Shown here: piece after piece, positions 18,001-27,000 of the stretch
Numbering within the stretch: the first letter of the stretch is position 1
How the letters are laid out: every line of letters begins with the position of its first letter
NCBI GenBank assembly: GCA_963793425.1
Contig: CAWCAG010000003.1
Span: 39,085 to 103,084 of the forward strand
DNA: 64,000 nt
Reading direction: 5' to 3'
DNA from: an uncultured cyanobacterium
GTDB lineage: Bacteria > Cyanobacteriota > Cyanobacteriia > Cyanobacteriales > CAWCAG01
Made by a program: the position numbers

Positions 18001-21000
18001 CTAGGCCGTCATAAAACTCGAACACGACATACCCCAGCATCGATAAGCTCGATACCGCACCCCTCACTTGCTCAGTTGTCACTTCCAAGTATTTTTGTAA
18101 TTCATCGAGATTACGATAACCCAATATCTCTTGTATTATCCTTAACGGTATCCCCGCATTACTCATCTGAGTCAAAGCTGTCCGACGAAAACTATAGGTA
18201 CTCACCCCTTCTATCCCCAACTTCTCACAACTCACCCTCAAGATCCTCGCTGCGCTATCTGGGTTGATATGACTCTTGCCATGACGACCAGGAAACAAAA
18301 ACCGACCCCTCGGTGATGGATAGTAAGAAACTAGTAAGGTTCTTAATTCCTCATTTATTGGTATGGCACGGGTATCTAGCTGTCCTTTGGTATTAGCTTT
18401 ACGAAAGATGATTTCTCCCCTAAGTTTTCCTTTGCCGTTGTAGACATCCTTAAAATTCCAAGGTAAAAGCTTCATTAATACGACAGGCGGTGTAAAGACA
18501 AACTTCAAACAAAGCCCGATCTCTAGAGTTAGTTAACCCTTGGCTAAATAGCAACTGAATCTCTTCTAAGGTAAGAATTTTTGCTCTACCGTGCCTATTG
18601 ATTTTCATTTCATGATGTCCCTACACCCTCACACGAAGTCATACTACTAGTCTGTCAAAGTAATAATGACGGATAATGTGAGATGTAAATCTTGCCAAAT
18701 CTACGCTATTAATGCCAGCTAAAAAATATATTGTCTCTCTGAGTGAGGATGAACGCTTTTCACTGCAAGAATTAACCCAAAAAGGGAAAGCTGCTGCCCG
18801 AAAAATTAATCATGCTCGTATCTTACTCAAAGCAGATATTAATCAAGATAACGGGGGGTGGAATGACCAGATGATTAGCCAAGCATTGGATATCAGTACG
18901 AGAACCATTGAGAGAGTTAGACAAAGATTTGTCGAAGAAGGATTAGAACAAGCACTGAGTCCTGGTCGGAAAAACTCCTTGAAACTAAAAAAGATAGATG
19001 GAGAAGCTGAAGCTCATTTAATTGCCATAGCTTGTGGGAAATCTCCAACAGGTTCTAGCCGTTGGACTTTACGATTACTAGCTGACGAAATGGTGGTTTT
19101 AGGATATGTGGAAAGTATTTCTCATGAAAGTGTTAGACAAGTCTTAAAAAAAACGAAATCAAACCTTGGCTGCAAGAATGTTGGGTAATTCCTCCTCAAG
19201 CTAATGCAGAGTTTGTTTGTCAGATGGAAGAAGTTTTAGAGCTTTATACCCGCCCCTATGACCCTTGTTACCCGTTAGTTTGCTTTGACGAAAGCTCTAA
19301 ACAATTAATTTCCGAAACGCGACAACCCCTAACTGCTGAACCTGGAAAACCTGAACGCTTTGATTATCAATACCAACGAGAAGGAGTGAGAAATTTATTC
19401 ATGTTTTTTGAACCTTTAAAAGCTTGGAGACACGTTGAGGTAACTGACCAACGTACCAGCATCGATTATGCTCAACAAATGAAATACTTAGTGGATGAAT
19501 GTTACCCAGAGGCTATCAAAATTCGAGTGGTTCAAGATAACCTAAATACTCATGTCAAAGCCTCATTGTACAAAGCATTTTGCCCTTGTGAAGCTCGCCG
19601 AATACTAGACAAATTAGAGTTTTACTATACTCCTAAACATGGTAGTTGGTTAAATATGGCTGAAATTGAATTGAGTGTTTTAAACAGGCAATGTCTTAAT
19701 CGGCGTATTCCTTTTGAGGAGACTTTAATCCAGGAAGTGCAGGCTTGGGAGCAACGAAGGAATCGAACTTCAACTCCAGTCGATTGGCAATTTACCACTG
19801 AAGATGCTCGCATCAAGTTAACTAAATTGTATCCGTCAGTTTCTTCTTGACAGACTACTACTAGAAGTGCCAGCTTAGAGACGAGGGCAAAGCTGCGCTC
19901 GTCCTTACTCTTAAAATCAAGACCTCTTCACCTAAGCATCTACTAGCTCTATTTGCAGGCGCTTACCCAAAATTGAGGCGGCACGGTCTATAGTTTTTAG
20001 GGTGACAGAAGTGTTGTTTGGATTGAGAAGCCTATCTAGGGAGGATCTACTGGTACTCATGGCTTCTGCCATCTGAGTTTTACTCATTCCACGTTTGTTC
20101 ATTTCTTGAGTAATCTGCCACGCTATAACTCGCTTGAGTGCTACGGCAGTAACCTCTGATAAAATGCCTTCTTCTTCAAGAAATTCGTCAAAGGAAGAGC
20201 CTATATGAATATTCTTAGTCATCTTTTTGAGCCTCTAATTTGTTTTTCCTTTGGCGTGCTTTGTCTAAATATTCTGTGGGAGTTTTTTGGGTTTTCTTGA
20301 TAAATCCATGTAATAAAATCATCTGTCCTTCATAGATACAGAACAAGACCCTGGCTATTTTGTCTGTAGGAAGATTAGAACGAACTTCGTAGAGTCCTTT
20401 GCCCAAAGGACGACAAGTAGGCATTCCTACAGGCCATCCAAACTCAACAGTTTTAATGTCGTTACCTATTACTCTCCTTTCTGATGCCTCTAACCCTAGA
20501 AGCCATTCTCGAACAGGGAGCTTTCCCGTTTCGGTTTGAAAGAATTTGGCAGGTAGACGCTTATTGCTCATATTTGATTATTGTACCTAAAAAGGTACTT
20601 GAAACAATACTCTCTTTACCCCACCCAAAAATAAATCCCAGCAAGTGATAACCAAACAGGAGTTAGTTGACGAAAGAACAAACTTAGAACTAAAGTCAAA
20701 ATCAAAGCCCCTACATGAGCATGAAGGTCAAAGATTAGCCTCCCAGAAACCTCTCTAACTCCATTCCATTTAGCCTGCTTCTTACTTTTGAAATGGTTAA
20801 TTATCTCTCGTTCCAACAGCAACAATTTCTCTTGTGAGTAGCTAGGAAGAGGAAGATAATAGAGCCTTGCCCAAGGTAGTAATTGAGCTTTAGACAGCTT
20901 GTGATGTGTGTAGAATCCGCTACTATTCCAACGAGCATTAAGGTTGCTACTCATTCCCACATAAACTACTTCCCAGAAAGAAATTAATAGATAAATTCCT

Positions 21001-24000: not shown

Positions 24001-27000
24001 GTCTTTTAAAGGAAATTCAGGGGTATTAAATGAGGCATCAGCTAAATTAAATTCTGAAATACCTGGTATTTCGACCTTTCCAGATTTGATTATCTCTTCT
24101 GTTTTGAAAGGCGCTTTCCCTCGTCTCACTTCTTTAGTGCCTTGTCTAGTCAGGGTATTAGCTATTTTTGCAGCCCTGGTAGAAATAATTCCTGTAGATT
24201 TTTCAGCCATGATTTCCTGTTGCTAATAAGGGTGTTCGCTTTGATCTCAAGTTTGCGATGGCGCTCATCAAGTTCAAAGAGTTTTTGGTCTAGCCATTCC
24301 TCAAATTTGAATTCTTCTAAGCCATCTTCAATCTGCTCTAAGTCAGCTTCAGGAGGGGATTCAGTTGGTTCTGGGAGATTATTCATCTAGTCCCTCCCGT
24401 TTACGCTGTAATGCCTGTATTTTCTGGTCGAGTTCTGCTTGTTTTTTTTCTAAGGATGATAGGGATTCATCAAGCCAGTCTGGTGGTTGTGTCATTGCTT
24501 CTACTTCTTGATTGAGTTGTTGAAGTCTTTGCTCTAACTCTGGGGTTGTGGGAGGGGATGAATAAAGGTCCTCTAGCCTCTTTTTGTTTTCATTCAGTTC
24601 TTCTGGGGTCATAATTAACGCTCTTGAGCTAATAGCTAGGGTTTACTGAGTATTCAAAACCAAACATATATCTCCCCAACTGTTTTTCTTTAGCGTCCAG
24701 CCCCTCTACACTGAGACGGTTGGGCTGTTAGAGGCACTGAGTCACTATTATTAGCCCAAAATACTGTTATTACCGCTATTCCTAGAGCTAGGGCTATACA
24801 GCCTACCCCGTATAACGTTTTAATGCCTGGGTATTTTCTTTTATTCATTGCTATGATTAGGTTTGAGTGAGTTAAGTTAATGAGCTTACGCTGCTTGTTT
24901 TGCTTGCTCAGAGGTGGCAGTTAGTTTAGAGCTAGCTGTCACCAATTTTTCTTGGTACTCTGCTATGTGGTAGAGCAGTTCCTCGATAGCGGGGTCGTCG
25001 TAGAAGCGTTGTAACTCTTGAAGTTGGGCTATTACTTCTCCGAGCTTGATAGAAGTCGTGTTAATTAGGTTTGTGTTCATTTCAGGCTAAAGTGATGGTT
25101 CGTTTTTAGTTTTTCGGTTGAACATTATTAATCTGCTGATTAGTACTTCCATCAATGAAATAGCCACCTGCTATCCCTACACCCAATAGCAATAGAGTAA
25201 GGAGCAGCATGATGATTACTTCCCCACTAAGGAATTGAGGCTTTTTAACATTTCCCCCATCTGGTCAAGGGTCGCTTGGTTGGTATCCTTAGAAGCTTGG
25301 GCTTGTTGGCTCATCTCATGAAGTTTGGCAAGCTGGGTAATTTGGTTTTGTGCTGCCTGTGTTTGAGCGGCTACTTGGTTCGCTTCCTCTATCTGTTGAT
25401 GCGTCCTCGCTGTTGCTACCTCGATTAAGTCTTGCAGCTTGTCGTTGATTGATTTTTGTTTCAATATTTCGGGGGTGTCAACCTGTACTATTTCTGCATT
25501 TAGTACTGGTAGTTCTGGTAGGTCTGGGACTTCGATTTGATAGGGGTTAATAGCTTCTGAACACTCGCTTTCGGGGATTTGCTGTGCTTCAGGGTAAGTC
25601 GCTAAATGCTCACTAATTGGTAGATTTTCTATAAATTCCTTGGGGCTAACTCCAGATTCTTTTTGCTCATTCATTAGTTGAACCAAAGTGTTGAAGCCAT
25701 TCTCACTAATTTTTCTGCCGATATAGAACTCATACCCACTAGTTTCTAGGGGTTTAAGCCAGGTTTTGGTTAGATTCTGGCGAGTGGTTTGTAAAAAACT
25801 GGCAACTGCACTTTTGGTTGCGGGAAATTCAGGCAGACTTTGGTTCCCTCTAGTTACGTTTTTGGTTGCATCTGGTTGCTTGCAACTGGGACGTAACCCG
25901 CTTGTAACTGTTGCATCTTGGTTGCAGTTTCCAGTTTCAAATTCTTTAAATTCATTCACATCAATCTCTTTAGCCATAGTTACTTCATTTTCCTCTTCGA
26001 TTTACCCACAGTTTCCTCTCTTAATCGTAATTGCAGTATAGTTGCATGGCGATTGCAGTGTCAAGACACAACAAAGATTTTTCTATGATAAAACTAAGAT
26101 GTATTTACCCTGCAATAGCCATGTAAAGATAGGATAGTAAAGATGAAGATTGATACGATACACCCAAAAATGGCTACAGAAGGACTAAGACTAACCGTAG
26201 TTTTGAGCGATTTTGCCTCTAGGCGGCTAATCTGGTGGGCTAAAACCCACGACAAGACTAAATCAGCATACGCGGCTCAAATAATTGAGGCGAGAGTAGA
26301 ATCTGATATCTCAACGATCGAAGCCTCAATTAATCAATGCGCTCAAGACAGGGGAATTAGCCCCGATAAACTTAAAGAAGAATGGTTGTTAGAAGATAAC
26401 TATCTAGAACTAAAAAGAGAGGGTGAATAAATCATCAATATTCCAATTAACAAGGGGGAACCGTGATGAGCGTTAAATGTTTAGACAAACTAGAGAATTC
26501 GTTAGAGATAACGAAGTGATTGTCAATTTCTAGCGCTTGAATAGTTGAAAGGAATGGACAGTAAAAAGTGAAATAGATTTAGATAGTTAGATTAGCGCAA
26601 TCTTGCTTATCGTAGGGAATTAAGCAATAGCACAGGCTTGCAAATAGTCTATAATTACAATCAACATAAAAAAGCCCCAGTGCAATGCACTAGGACTGGA
26701 CTAAAAACCCTAAAAGCCGAAAACTTTTAGGCGCTAATGAAGAATTTTGAGATTGAGACCCTCTTTAATTCTTTATTTGACGCACAAAAATGCGTCTACA
26801 TATATTTTCTAATGTAATACACTACAGAGTGGTTTAGCAATTACTATGCAGTAACAAAATTAGGATAAGCGCTTAAAGGACAGGGCTTTTGGGATTTCGC
26901 AAAATTTTTACCCAAAATGCCAGAATCAAAATTTAGTACAAATATCACCAATCTTGGGGGCGCTGAACAGTGAGCCTGACCCCCAAACAAAGCCAGAAAC

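Follow-up and report, generated by a model that had tools for sequence, protein, structure and literature searches.

A conserved plasmid module with a membrane-anchored FtsK/HerA-class motor, a candidate relaxase-independent DNA translocase, in an uncultured cyanobacterium

In Streptomyces plasmids, TraB and the Spd proteins move the plasmid without a relaxase. These Tra/Spd systems, as outlined in PMC4447253, combine a DNA-binding regulator, an FtsK-like translocase and an operon of three to seven small, diverse genes, often with membrane-associated products. Two further accounts describe a nuclease accompanying the DNA-donation ATPase of Thermus ICETh1 (PMC5365140) and a tra operon opening with an endonuclease gene in pELF linear plasmids (PMC13492992). 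Here we describe a cyanobacterial plasmid module for which we propose a likeness to the Streptomyces systems. Our best reading, held tentatively, is that it encodes a TraB-like, relaxase-independent, membrane-anchored FtsK-type complex that translocates double-stranded plasmid DNA. This unnamed conserved gene set may move or segregate plasmids of filamentous cyanobacteria without known conjugation machinery.

An eight-gene module and its copies

The window analyzed is a stretch of 64,000 nucleotides on contig C3. Eight co-oriented genes occupy 20616-25977 on the minus strand, divergent from a CyRepA1 gene, and our ORF calls reproduced the coordinates in the initial annotation.

25216..25977, minus: m1, first module gene; 253-aa acidic protein with an HTH-like N-terminal half and a helical, Gln-rich C-terminal tail
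24886..25080, minus: m2, small helical protein of 64 aa
24690..24848, minus: m3, basic, 52 aa; hydropathy shows a single hydrophobic helix at residues 12-30
24379..24612, minus: m4, 77-aa acidic coiled-coil protein
24162..24386, minus: m5, 74-aa acidic protein, immediately upstream of m6
23548..24210, minus: m6, 220 aa, upstream partner of the motor gene
21164..23371, minus: m7, 735-aa motor protein
21096..21163, minus: terminator-like stem-loop and T-run between m7 and m8 (-17.6 kcal/mol, z -2.68)
20616..21095, minus: m8, basic protein of the GIY-YIG type, 159 aa; by hydropathy its C-terminal segment (about 120-149) is hydrophobic
25978..26142, no strand: divergent control region with TTGCA-containing short direct repeats (D1/D2) and a 50-nt imperfect inverted repeat (I1)
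26143..26430, plus: 95-aa ORF, first of the rep-side operon, putative ribbon-helix-helix regulator
27056..30493, plus: CyRepA1-family replication gene, 1145 aa (NF042913 E 4.3e-87, 293 bits against a cut-off of 200)
30972..31670, minus: MOB relaxase remnant, 232 aa, C-terminal half only (tblastn)

Judged from its sequence, the 95-aa ORF looks like a ribbon-helix-helix regulator, and ORFs in the matching position at other loci match Pfam RHH_5. The best promoter-like site of the control region maps to 26064-26035, minus strand (-35/-10 score 11/12); because promoter-like sites in total did not exceed the shuffle expectation, we regard it as a lead only. The stem-loop between m7 and m8 was equalled in folding by 5 of 200 shuffles. 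Four metagenome runs, all belonging to one study, contain contigs that match the unique parts of 20000-32700 at all but 0-1 letters, free of unpaired indels. As the runs may represent the source sample itself, the match is not independent support. No RNA run contains the stretch.

The four copies of this co-oriented module beside CyRepA1 that had been reported (two on C3, one each on C2 and C4) were all recovered. The one at 20616-25977 is the only fully intact copy. The second copy on C3 and its surroundings comprise:

42996..46262, minus: second CyRepA1 gene, 1088 aa (NF042913 E 1e-122; DUF3854 E 1.6e-46)
48528..53824, plus: copy 2 of the module, damaged
48528-49283, 49468-49665, 49891-50136 and 50129-50353, plus: m1', m2', m4' and m5'
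50305-50967, 51086-53285 and 53345-53824, plus: m6', broken m7' and m8'
55386..56756, plus: MOB relaxase downstream of copy 2, 456 aa (PF03432 E 4.9e-19, 69 bits against a cut-off of 24.6)

In copy 2, m7' has four in-frame stops inside one out-of-frame stretch of ~25 residues and another frame change near residue 291, and an IS630-type transposase gene (47487-48485) lies between the module and its rep gene. On C2, IS630-type ORFs split the 220-aa gene from the large gene, which has a frame change near its 3' end, and the GIY-YIG gene is split. The C4 copy retains an intact large gene (729-731 aa), but of its GIY-YIG gene only 39 residues are left. With three of four copies damaged, the function is dispensable in this genome, which counts against the TraB-like reading. 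Identity to m7 is 44% for C4, 78% for C2 and 65-82% for copy 2; the 97% at the top of the range given before was not seen.

The copies in this genome adjoin ParA genes and lack an adjacent protelomerase; all four have a MOB relaxase or remnant within a few kb. The remnant at 30972..31670 is 38% identical to residues 234-436 of the 456-aa relaxase and 82% identical to the C2 relaxase, with no Pfam match of its own.

The m1 orthologue in copy 2 gives weak HTH_17 and excisionase matches, and the m1 family alignment conserves a W-x-W-L-x-E motif after the HTH; Nostoc-type loci carry two genes, of 122 and 206 aa, in its place. Neither m2 (54-56% identity in copy 2 and C2) nor m6 had a family match in profile scans. 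In m6 the N-terminus is of low complexity, the motif DPLNPP is conserved, and AF2 models two long helices at 88-166 and 172-219 (pLDDT 62). A 57% match to m3 occurs in copy 2, and at its position two Nostoc-type loci have a hydrophobic peptide of 52-55 aa (cluster 48). The small proteins had been annotated as coiled coils, but the 52-aa m3 is a hydrophobic membrane peptide. For m4, identity in copy 2 and C2 is 74-79%, and the only matches are weak coiled-coil ones. An 82-aa antisense ORF overlaps m5, so we called m5 from its orientation and its likeness to the 62-aa cluster 5, its positional counterpart at other loci. The Pfam GIY-YIG match of m8 (E 2.8e-4, 21.6 bits) falls just under the 22.6 cut-off; T5orf172/MUG113-type counterparts in the matching position elsewhere exceed Pfam cut-offs, and G33, G47, R55 and E95 are invariant in the alignment.

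The motor protein and its relatives

Hydropathy places two hydrophobic helices at residues 6-24 and 34-52 of m7. Next comes a region of coiled-coil composition (about 60-270, with weak coiled-coil-type matches at 62-266). The FtsK-type alpha+beta motor covers about 275-640, and a disordered linker connects it to a four-Cys zinc ribbon at 699-722. Residues 271-735 were modelled by AF2 at pLDDT 90.8. Foldseek ranked TcpA (8.5e-12) and FtsK (2.7e-11) five orders of magnitude ahead of the next family, EssC (5.5e-6). By VIA, Z was 14.7 for TcpA (289 residues aligned), 13.9 for EccC, 13.8 for EssC, 13.1 for FtsK, 12.6 for VirB4 and 11.3 for TrwB. Only the TcpA and FtsK rows aligned model residues 1-368, which span the N-terminal alpha-like domain and the RecA-like domain.

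The Pfam FtsK_SpoIIIE model does not match m7. Yet hhalign of the m7 family against nine cyanobacterial FtsK motors gave 94.8% (E 5.4e-8) over 242 columns; the aligned part takes in the Walker A and B motifs as well as the ATQRP/GQS strand. This link to FtsK at the level of sequence profiles is new. Walker A reads GSGKS (K401) and Walker B WDEFD (D494, E495, D497). Across 57 sequences the catalytic K401 and D497 are invariant, as had been claimed, whereas G400 and E495, listed with them, are at least 90% conserved. These data support the identification of m7 as a P-loop motor of the FtsK/HerA class, anchored in the membrane and with a zinc ribbon at its C-terminus, in agreement with the initial annotation.

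That annotation also named TcpA as the best fold match, which we reproduced, and saw in m7 a candidate coupling protein. On such a reading, m7 would be a TcpA-type type IV coupling protein passing relaxase-bound single-stranded plasmid DNA to the type IV secretion system of another element. The fold match and the relaxases or remnants near all four copies here favor it. The TcpA Z score, however, is tied within about 1 with EccC, EssC, DndH and FtsK, and the sequence-level link is to FtsK. Moreover, the role requires a type IV secretion system, and neither VirB4 (PF03135, PF12846) nor VirD4 (PF02534) families were found in this 98.6% complete genome. We assessed synteny over 31 loci, with most neighbor counts made on 27 of them. 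A MOB relaxase lies near the module at 4/27 loci, all from this genome; none was found at the other 23 or in 82 further neighboring ORFs scanned. Thus the proposed relaxase link holds for the copies here and does not extend to the family. Nor did the 40 proteins of two complete small module plasmids include a relaxase, T4SS, ParA or ParB-type protein, and every motor-bearing plasmid in PLSDB is typed non-mobilizable. We consider a coupling role very improbable. The earlier caution that fold does not prove conjugation still stands: the modelled fold would suit transfer, segregation or defence, and does not decide among them.

Plasmid context, hosts and rival roles

At every locus with upstream sequence (26/26, and 4/4 further loci), a ~220-aa protein corresponding to m6 is encoded upstream of the motor. 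The m6-m7 pair is thus kept at 30/30 loci, at 23-35% identity, adjoining a large rep gene. It is a core plasmid function, which we count toward the TraB-like reading. The usual neighbors are CyRepA1, a membrane-anchored GIY-YIG-type protein, a protelomerase and a small tyrosine recombinase. A homologous rep gene is upstream and divergent at 19/27 loci, and also at L056 and L057; the GIY-YIG-type gene is at most two genes downstream of the motor at 17/26. Protelomerase genes occur at 15/27 loci (most others being cut contigs) and on 11 of 12 motor-bearing PLSDB plasmids, at many loci 3' of the module in the same orientation. The recombinase (~220 aa) is nearby at 18/27. This linkage, missed in the earlier account, shows that the module is part of the backbone of hairpin-telomere linear plasmids. 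It takes up ~5.5 kb of complete plasmids of 16-22 kb.

A profile search with the motor family, run over 1.84 billion representatives, found 164 at E<=0.001; the 107 clusters counted previously presumably came from a single-sequence query. The family is supported as rare and without annotation. In PLSDB the motor is on 12 of 72,556 plasmids, one more than reported, and the non-mobilizable typing was confirmed for all. CyRepA1 relatives are on 104 PLSDB plasmids, some from hosts that we take to be unicellular; a replication accessory role for the motor was rejected on these counts. Every named host genus of the motor is presumably filamentous (two MAGs without genus name aside). Of 400 sampled cyanobacterial genomes, 100 carry hetR; all four true motor matches fell in these and none in the other 300. 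This genome, too, has hetR. A protelomerase family match was also found in the Synechococcus elongatus control. A quick motor tree largely tracks host groups, with a Nostocales clade, a Coleofasciculaceae clade and a separate clade for this genome. That is not the picture expected of frequent transfer among distant hosts, and it counts against the TraB-like reading.

The main rival, which we judge rather unlikely, is plasmid segregation or telomere processing inside one cell, the motor acting like FtsK or SpoIIIE. It would separate replicated hairpin-plasmid dimers at the membrane or closing septum and offer the junction to the protelomerase or tyrosine recombinase, with the HTH protein as centromere or site adaptor. 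The protelomerase and recombinase linkage fits maintenance at least as well as transfer, and by sequence m7 is closest to the chromosomal FtsK motor. The scarcity of ParA (within 10 kb at only 6/27 loci), the lack of ParA and ParB-type proteins on the two small plasmids and the host-tracking tree point the same way. But the copies in this genome sit beside ParA genes rather than a protelomerase, and partition offers no obvious role for a membrane-anchored nuclease or for several membrane peptides. In place of FtsK-gamma, the domain that activates Xer recombination, m7 has a zinc ribbon. In addition, the motor was found only in hetR-bearing or presumably filamentous hosts, though CyRepA1 and protelomerase matches reach beyond them.

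Protelomerase plus a large primase-helicase-type rep is the pattern of the phage-plasmid N15, and defence systems commonly hold ATPase and nuclease pairs. The plasmids might be phage-plasmids or satellites whose module acts in exclusion or defence, or lets DNA in or out during infection. The rep proteins match phrog_4913 'replication' (1e-21 for the CyRepA1 protein at 27056..30493). Viral ATPases of the FtsK-like and A32-like kinds count among the fold relatives, and at 4/31 loci a phage-type large terminase, 61% identical to that of Nodularia phages, lies beside the rep or protelomerase gene. No such terminase was found in this genome, however, and PADLOC and PHROGs families match no module protein beyond coiled-coil noise. 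Two different family members had no relative among 50,697 phage records; none appeared in IMG/VR (pattern scan) or in the Nodularia phage genome (HMM), and the complete 16-22 kb plasmids have no recognizable capsid or tail genes. A virus-like or conflict role is improbable.

A proposed TraB-like mechanism compared with known systems

On the tentatively preferred TraB-like reading, m7 would sit in the cytoplasmic membrane by its two N-terminal helices and oligomerize through the coiled-coil region and motor, presumably as an FtsK-like hexameric ring. The zinc ribbon, the HTH protein m1, or both may recognize plasmid DNA, which m7 would pump at the expense of ATP. Together with m6 and the small peptides, acidic or of the membrane kind, the membrane-anchored GIY-YIG-type nuclease could make up the rest of the apparatus. 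Its most likely purpose, by analogy, would be to carry the plasmid across membranes without a relaxase, from cell to cell or between filament neighbors. Several points count against this reading. The module has no visible cell-wall hydrolase or means of crossing the outer membrane, and no clt-like repeat array was demonstrated. In this genome, moreover, MOB relaxases, a feature of single-strand transfer, are found alongside the module.

The C-terminal domain is a zinc ribbon in m7 and a winged helix in FtsK-gamma or TraB, a further point against the TraB-like reading. Also against it, a coiled-coil region between anchor and motor sets m7 apart from FtsK, TraB and TcpA as described in the papers and solved structures consulted. 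In its favor, the order of anchor, linker, motor, linker and small nucleic-acid-binding domain is that of FtsK and, by published descriptions, of TraB. The FtsK-type motor, the lack of other transfer machinery and the presumably filamentous hosts count on the same side. The module as a whole resembles Streptomyces Tra/Spd in its regulator, its small genes and its FtsK-like motor, and we count this resemblance in favor of the TraB-like reading.

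Four copies of an eight-gene module

The window carries two copies of a module of eight co-oriented genes (m1-m8), each beside a replication gene of the CyRepA1 family. The main features are as follows.

20616-25977 (-): module copy 1, m1-m8, eight co-oriented ORFs of 253, 64, 52, 77, 74, 220, 735 and 159 aa
27056-30493 (divergent from the module): CyRepA1-family replication gene, 1145 aa (NF042913, 293 bits versus a cut-off of 200)
30972-31670 (-): relaxase remnant beside copy 1, C-terminal half, 232 aa
42996-46262: second CyRepA1 gene (NF042913, 411 bits versus a cut-off of 200)
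48528-53824 (+): module copy 2, adjoining the second CyRepA1 gene

A tblastn search of the whole genome (9 contigs, 5.28 Mb) placed one further copy on each of contigs C2 and C4. Thus tblastn and NF042913 recovered the arrangement described in the initial annotation, with copies twice on C3 (the contig of the window) and once each on C2 and C4, beside CyRepA1. Copy 1 is the only one of the four that is fully intact. In copy 2, the large gene is out of frame over a short stretch containing four stops, and its frame changes at one other point. On C2, IS630-type ORFs separate m6 from m7, m8 is split and there is also a frame change; the C4 copy has an intact large gene and an m8 reduced to a remnant. 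Over the unique parts of 20000-32700, metagenome contigs from four runs of a single study agree with the window sequence, with zero unpaired indels; these runs may stem from the source sample, and they say nothing about copy 2. No RNA runs were listed as carrying the module stretch. Between m1 and m2 of copy 1 lies a strongly hydrophobic mini-ORF of 34 aa (25106-25210, -). Because it is not conserved in the other three copies, it is probably no gene.

Several other elements surround the two copies. Toxin-antitoxin-type pairs lie next to each, Gp49-like/HTH at 19932-20571 (-) for copy 1 and AbiEii/AbiEi at 58718-60393 (-) for copy 2. A conserved 161-aa protein without known family is encoded at 32163-32648 (+) and 57332-57817 (+), with 93% identity between the two; it follows a relaxase or remnant at three sites, and occurs on C6 as well, beside a broken relaxase gene. 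A type I restriction-modification locus at 35723-42294 (-), comprising an HsdM fragment, HsdS and HsdR with an inserted HEPN/nucleotidyltransferase pair, adjoins an IS630 transposase, and its 300-aa HsdM ORF covers the first part of the N6_Mtase model only. Positions 1051-15746 encode a 2583-aa Calx-beta/DUF4114 protein, an M50-like peptidase, an HlyD-type adaptor and a 1231-aa TPS-domain/beta-helix protein, and are a region of secretion and adhesin cargo on the same plasmid-like contig.

The large protein and its partners

The predicted domain order of m7, the 735-aa protein, is a membrane anchor, a linker, an alpha+beta motor, a disordered linker and a small, putatively nucleic-acid-binding C-terminal domain. 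Hydropathy predicts two N-terminal membrane helices (6-24 and 34-52), and residues of about 60-270 draw solely weak coiled-coil-type matches. Residues 271-735 were modelled from a 57-sequence alignment with pLDDT 90.8 and pTM 0.78. Foldseek searches of the PDB with this model were led by TcpA (8.5e-12) and the FtsK motor (2.7e-11), with EssC next at 5.5e-6. A VIA comparison with 48,161 chains likewise put TcpA on top (Z 14.7, 289 residues aligned, rmsd 7.0), followed by EccC (13.9), EssC (13.8), DndH-C (13.4) and FtsK (13.1, 280 aligned), with VirB4 (12.6), HerA (11.4-11.7) and TrwB (11.3) in lower rows. VIA thus reproduced the fold scores first reported for this protein, with TcpA best and EccC/EssC, FtsK, VirB4 and TrwB behind it. 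Only TcpA (5-368) and FtsK (model residues 1-365) aligned with both the N-terminal alpha-like and the RecA-like domain.

Profile comparison points to FtsK too. With hhalign, the m7 family (57 sequences) matched nine cyanobacterial FtsK motors at 94.8% and E 5.4e-8 over 242 columns, an alignment spanning both Walker motifs (A and B) and a strand with the sequence ATQRP in FtsK and GQS in the m7 family. This tie of the family to FtsK at the sequence level is new here. Pfam FtsK_SpoIIIE (PF01580) gave no match to the 735-aa protein at E<=0.01; searched genome-wide, it found the chromosomal ftsK on C1 alone and none of the four module copies. Because this model misses m7, we regard the m7 family as a divergent FtsK offshoot outside the curated family. 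Across its 57 sequences the Walker A lysine K401 and the Walker B aspartate D497 are invariant, and G400, D494, E495, Q532, R606 and three of the four cysteines of the zinc ribbon reach at least 90% conservation. This C-terminal ribbon (CxxC-x14-CxxxxC) was modelled at pLDDT of about 96 and matches the LigA zinc-binding domain and eL43 weakly; it stands in place of a gamma winged-helix domain, which was not detected at the m7 C-terminus. Searched against PDB sequences, the m7 profile returned nothing beyond zinc-ribbon and coiled-coil noise.

The partner proteins gave fewer matches. The model of m6, the partner of about 220 aa, consists of long helices at pLDDT 62, and a protein atlas search for m6 gave no score >=0.9. 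Complex prediction for m7 with m6 scored 0.00, a value with no bearing either way on binding. Against PDB sequences, the m1 family profile gave one weak HTH match (E 0.014) and that of m8 no match. The m8 protein of copy 1 reached 21.6 bits with Pfam GIY-YIG, against a cut-off of 22.6, and that of copy 2 had no match. When m8 was aligned with T5orf172/MUG113 proteins that pass their own cut-offs, R55, E95 and both glycines of the GIY/YIG motif were invariant. PHROGs and PADLOC gave no family for any module protein beyond coiled-coil noise. Upstream of m1 are short two-copy repeats containing TTGCA; no array was found there.

Hosts and plasmid context

A word-index search returned 9 relatives of m7, all unnamed or 'hypothetical'. 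In a profile search of 1.84 billion representatives, 164 proteins matched at E<=0.001 and 54 at E<=1e-30; the few names among distant members are 'hypothetical' or generic, and one member is from a Leptolyngbya MAG. By tblastn, m7 is present on 12 of 72,556 PLSDB plasmids (Nostoc 8, Fischerella 2, Tolypothrix 1, Calothrix 1). All 12 are typed non-mobilizable, and all of the motor matches are annotated hypothetical. The initial annotation had been correct on typing, annotation and the four cyanobacterial genera; its count of 11 is revised to 12.

A pattern scan of GTDB species genomes with a 15-sequence alignment (A3) identified 20 loci, found in Nostoc, Scytonema, Mojavia, Symploca, Caldora, Symplocastrum and Zarconia and in two MAGs, one labelled 'Chroococcales' and the other 'uncultured bacterium'. 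For such scans the diversity of the 57-sequence alignment was too great, and a scan of genome contigs with the narrow alignment A1 found no relative. In a quick tree, the motor follows host groups, and the 'Chroococcales' contig falls inside the Nostoc clade. We take the named host genera to be filamentous. Using hetR as a proxy for such hosts, we found it in 100 of 400 evenly sampled cyanobacterial genomes. The motor profile had four true matches in this sample (G104, G376, G148 and G188), all among the 100 hetR carriers, and 0 in the 300 genomes without hetR; a fifth row, matching the zinc ribbon alone, was not counted. Because related genomes are not independent, this co-occurrence is a pattern, not a test. 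The genome of the window carries hetR, and a genome of the same genus holds one module copy, 34% identical and with gene order kept.

We called ORFs in 27 loci (the 4 copies of this genome, 3 complete PLSDB records and the 20 GTDB loci) and clustered the products by BLASTP; 4 more loci were then added, giving 31. The gene immediately upstream of the motor gene belongs to the m6 family in 26/26 loci with upstream sequence and in 4/4 added loci, and the pair holds even in the most distant branch (~23% identity). Genes upstream of the pair encode a small acidic protein (m5, cluster 5), between one and three additional small proteins, and an HTH-like protein of ~250 aa (m1 type) or, in place of the last, two products of 122 and 206 aa. 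At most two genes downstream, 17/26 loci encode a GIY-YIG-superfamily protein of ~160-170 aa with a hydrophobic C-terminus, of either m8 or T5orf172/MUG113 type; when aligned, these share invariant Gly, Gly, Arg and Glu. A CyRepA1-type rep gene is upstream and divergent in 19/27 loci, and the loci lacking it are mostly cut contigs or have a different protein of ~1150 aa in its place.

A protelomerase gene (ResT/TelK catalytic domain, E 1e-26 to 1e-31) is present in 15/27 loci, and outside the genome of the window it is usually the gene after the module. It is followed by a tyrosine recombinase of ~220 aa, found in 18/27 loci. Protelomerases of this type occur on 15 PLSDB plasmids, all from Nostocales, and 10 of the 12 motor-bearing plasmids are among them; annotated protelomerases occur on the Tolypothrix motor plasmid as well. 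The linear record pNPM10 has mirrored ends, and gene sets are mirrored in the Tolypothrix record and in pC052_H, as is expected of an assembler reading through a hairpin end. Such read-through, and linear replicons maintained by protelomerases in cyanobacteria, are described in parts of the preprint 10.1101/2024.11.13.623437. Given the rep, protelomerase and recombinase genes and these signs of hairpin ends, the module is backbone of a family of hairpin-telomere linear plasmids. This conserved 5-kb gene set fills a quarter to a third of the small linear plasmids, and is without annotation in the libraries searched.

Mirroring takes the form of identical protein accessions on both strands, across the whole of NZ_CP040280.1 and at 26483-30220 of NZ_CP063797.1. 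At 44 kb (linear) and 36 kb ('circular'), the deposited records are probably larger than the true replicons. The only protelomerase gene in the genome of the window is on contig C8, at about 7551-9074. Plasmid-like contigs C2, C3, C6 and C8 have tandem-repeat ends and share long near-identical segments; the right end of C8 corresponds to C2 1727-4726 at 99.3%, and that of C2 to C3 8635-11634 at 100%. The C8 protelomerase gene may share a replicon with the module copy on C2.

The initial annotation gave TcpA, a conjugative coupling protein, as the best structural match of the large protein, linked the module to MOB relaxases and saw in it a candidate apparatus for DNA transfer or segregation. 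The relaxase link is seen in the genome of the window, where a MOB relaxase or remnant lies near every one of the four copies, and does not extend to other hosts: the 4/27 loci with relaxases of this cluster all belong to this genome, and no relaxase families were found in another 82 neighbouring ORFs. VirB4/VirD4 families are likewise missing from these 82 ORFs, and VirB4/VirD4 types (PF03135, PF12846 and PF02534) from the genome of the window, which is 98.6% complete. No T4SS, relaxase or ParA/ParB families were found among 40 proteins of two complete small plasmids. Together with the non-mobilizable typing of the 12 PLSDB plasmids, these results argue against a type IV coupling protein of the TcpA type. 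Outside this genome the coupling-protein reading is left with neither a T4SS partner nor a cognate relaxase, and we consider it very unlikely; the module motor is probably not such a protein.

An accessory role in replication was rejected because CyRepA1 relatives are on 104 PLSDB plasmids, versus 12 with the motor. CyRepA1 hosts include Acaryochloris, Synechocystis and Crocosphaera, which we take to be unicellular.

A virus-related role, or one in genetic conflict, appears improbable. Two members of the m7 family had no tblastn match in 50,697 phage records, and a pattern scan of IMG/VR found no relative. The BFVD entry A0A482MIE7, an uncharacterised Nodularia phage protein of similar length (vB_NspS-kac65v161, 712 aa), resembles the motor in fold (Foldseek E 1.5e-7, 337 columns). 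Because the m7 family HMM finds nothing in the genome of this phage, the likeness is at superfamily level only.

Separately, 4 of the 31 module loci, from Scytonema, Symploca and two further genomes, encode a phage-type large terminase (Terminase_6N/6C).

L026, 16663-18159: large terminase gene
L034, 689-2224: large terminase gene
L058, 12667-14124: large terminase gene
L059, 12895-14352: large terminase gene

These genes are preceded by one for a small HTH protein and adjoin the rep gene or the protelomerase gene. The Symploca terminase is 61% identical to that of the 139-147 kb Nodularia phages vB_NspS-kac65/68 and vB_NpeS-2AV2; the genome of the window has no such large terminase. It may be that some of the linear plasmids are phage-plasmids, or satellites relying on borrowed capsids.

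Possible roles and relation to known systems

Little is understood about the plasmids of cyanobacteria, most of which are classed as non-mobilizable by typing tools. On our reading, m7 would be a membrane-anchored FtsK-type translocase of double-stranded DNA, acting with m6, the small proteins and a putative membrane-anchored nuclease. Its purpose could quite possibly be transport across membranes in the manner of TraB/Spd, the Streptomyces plasmid-transfer system. Consistent with this are hosts that carry hetR or that we take to be filamentous, no other transfer machinery having been found, and a Spd-like set of small, diverse, partly membrane-bound partners. The putative membrane-anchored nuclease favours it too, and recalls those of TdtA and pELF: in the parts of PMC5365140 that treat TdtA, nucleases are required with it in Thermus, and in those of PMC13492992 on pELF, an endonuclease gene opens the tra operon.

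Alternatively, the module could serve intracellular segregation or telomere processing. The FtsK affinity of the motor, its linkage to protelomerase and recombinase, the lack of ParA on the small plasmids and the agreement of the quick motor tree with host groups all favour this role, which we nevertheless judge rather unlikely. The two readings could meet: if plasmid-free cells were re-supplied by neighbours in the same filament, transport would itself be a stability system. On a bolder reading, which we judge rather doubtful, multicellular cyanobacteria would have their own counterpart of TraB/Spd, a relaxase-independent pump for double-stranded DNA on hairpin-telomere linear plasmids. Such a pump would push the plasmid from cell to cell, through filament septa or between filaments, and would thereby maintain it in all cells with no need of classical partition or conjugation. 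If so, an FtsK motor would have been recruited a second time, independently, for plasmid spread in a filamentous bacterium, and plasmids typed 'non-mobilizable' would in fact be mobile.

If the module moves DNA, it would provide a route of transfer or spreading that is invisible to current plasmid classification, with a bearing on gene flow among Nostoc symbionts and mat-forming cyanobacteria and on vector design; to our knowledge, it would be the first such system in a diderm phototroph. If it segregates hairpin plasmids, we know of no earlier FtsK-type partition or telomere-processing helper on a plasmid. Either way, a family with 164 representatives among 1.84 billion proteins merits both naming and experiment. 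In the portions of the literature covered on CyRepA1, cyanobacterial plasmid mobility, linear plasmids and protelomerases, we found no paper on the module.

Among known systems, m7 resembles FtsK/SpoIIIE in the order of anchor, long linker, alpha+beta motor, linker and small C-terminal DNA-recognition domain, and in its profile match, the fold over both motor domains, Walker A/B and the GQS/ATQRP strand. It differs in having two membrane helices rather than four, a linker of coiled-coil composition rather than one rich in Pro/Gln, and a zinc ribbon in place of the gamma winged helix; it is also encoded on plasmids, where a 220-aa partner shares its fixed operon.

The best structural match is TcpA of Clostridium perfringens pCW3, which is also plasmid-encoded and has N-terminal membrane helices ahead of an FtsK-like NTPase. 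However, it works with a relaxase and a VirB4-type T4SS, neither of which is detectable in most module carriers. Identity in the structural alignment is 14%, and TcpA has neither the coiled-coil region nor the zinc ribbon.

Streptomyces TraB, as portrayed in parts of PMC4447253 and PMC13492992, is likewise a plasmid-borne FtsK-like translocase of about 700-770 aa with a C-terminal DNA-recognition domain, and its operon also encodes a DNA-binding regulator and a number of small, diverse proteins, some of them membrane-bound. According to the same sections, TraB/Spd mediates conjugation and intramycelial spreading of double-stranded plasmids without relaxase or T4SS, in multicellular filamentous hosts and with linear plasmids among its carriers. 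The module shares the trait of a plasmid-borne membrane FtsK-like translocase without relaxase or T4SS in architecture and context alone, and it is by these, not by sequence, that we set it beside TraB. It belongs to another phylum with a diderm envelope, has a zinc ribbon rather than a winged helix, and adds a membrane-anchored GIY-YIG-type protein. The C-terminal domain of TraB reads clt, a cluster of 8-bp repeats; in the module, the search upstream of m1 yielded the short two-copy repeats and no array.

TdtA/NurA of Thermus ICETh1 and the tra operon of the pELF linear plasmids of Enterococcus also combine a membrane-associated FtsK/HerA-class ATPase with a nuclease encoded beside it on a mobile element, and donate DNA without a classical T4SS (PMC5365140 and PMC13492992, in the parts on these systems). 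TdtA is HerA-like and its nuclease NurA-like, whereas pELF has two ATPases and a rhomboid-like membrane protein (same parts); none of these partner proteins resembles those of the module. Plasmid FtsK-like translocases with accessory proteins are a kind already known. New here are an orphan at the sequence level, its coiled-coil region and zinc ribbon, its own fixed partners and its place on cyanobacterial hairpin-telomere plasmids.
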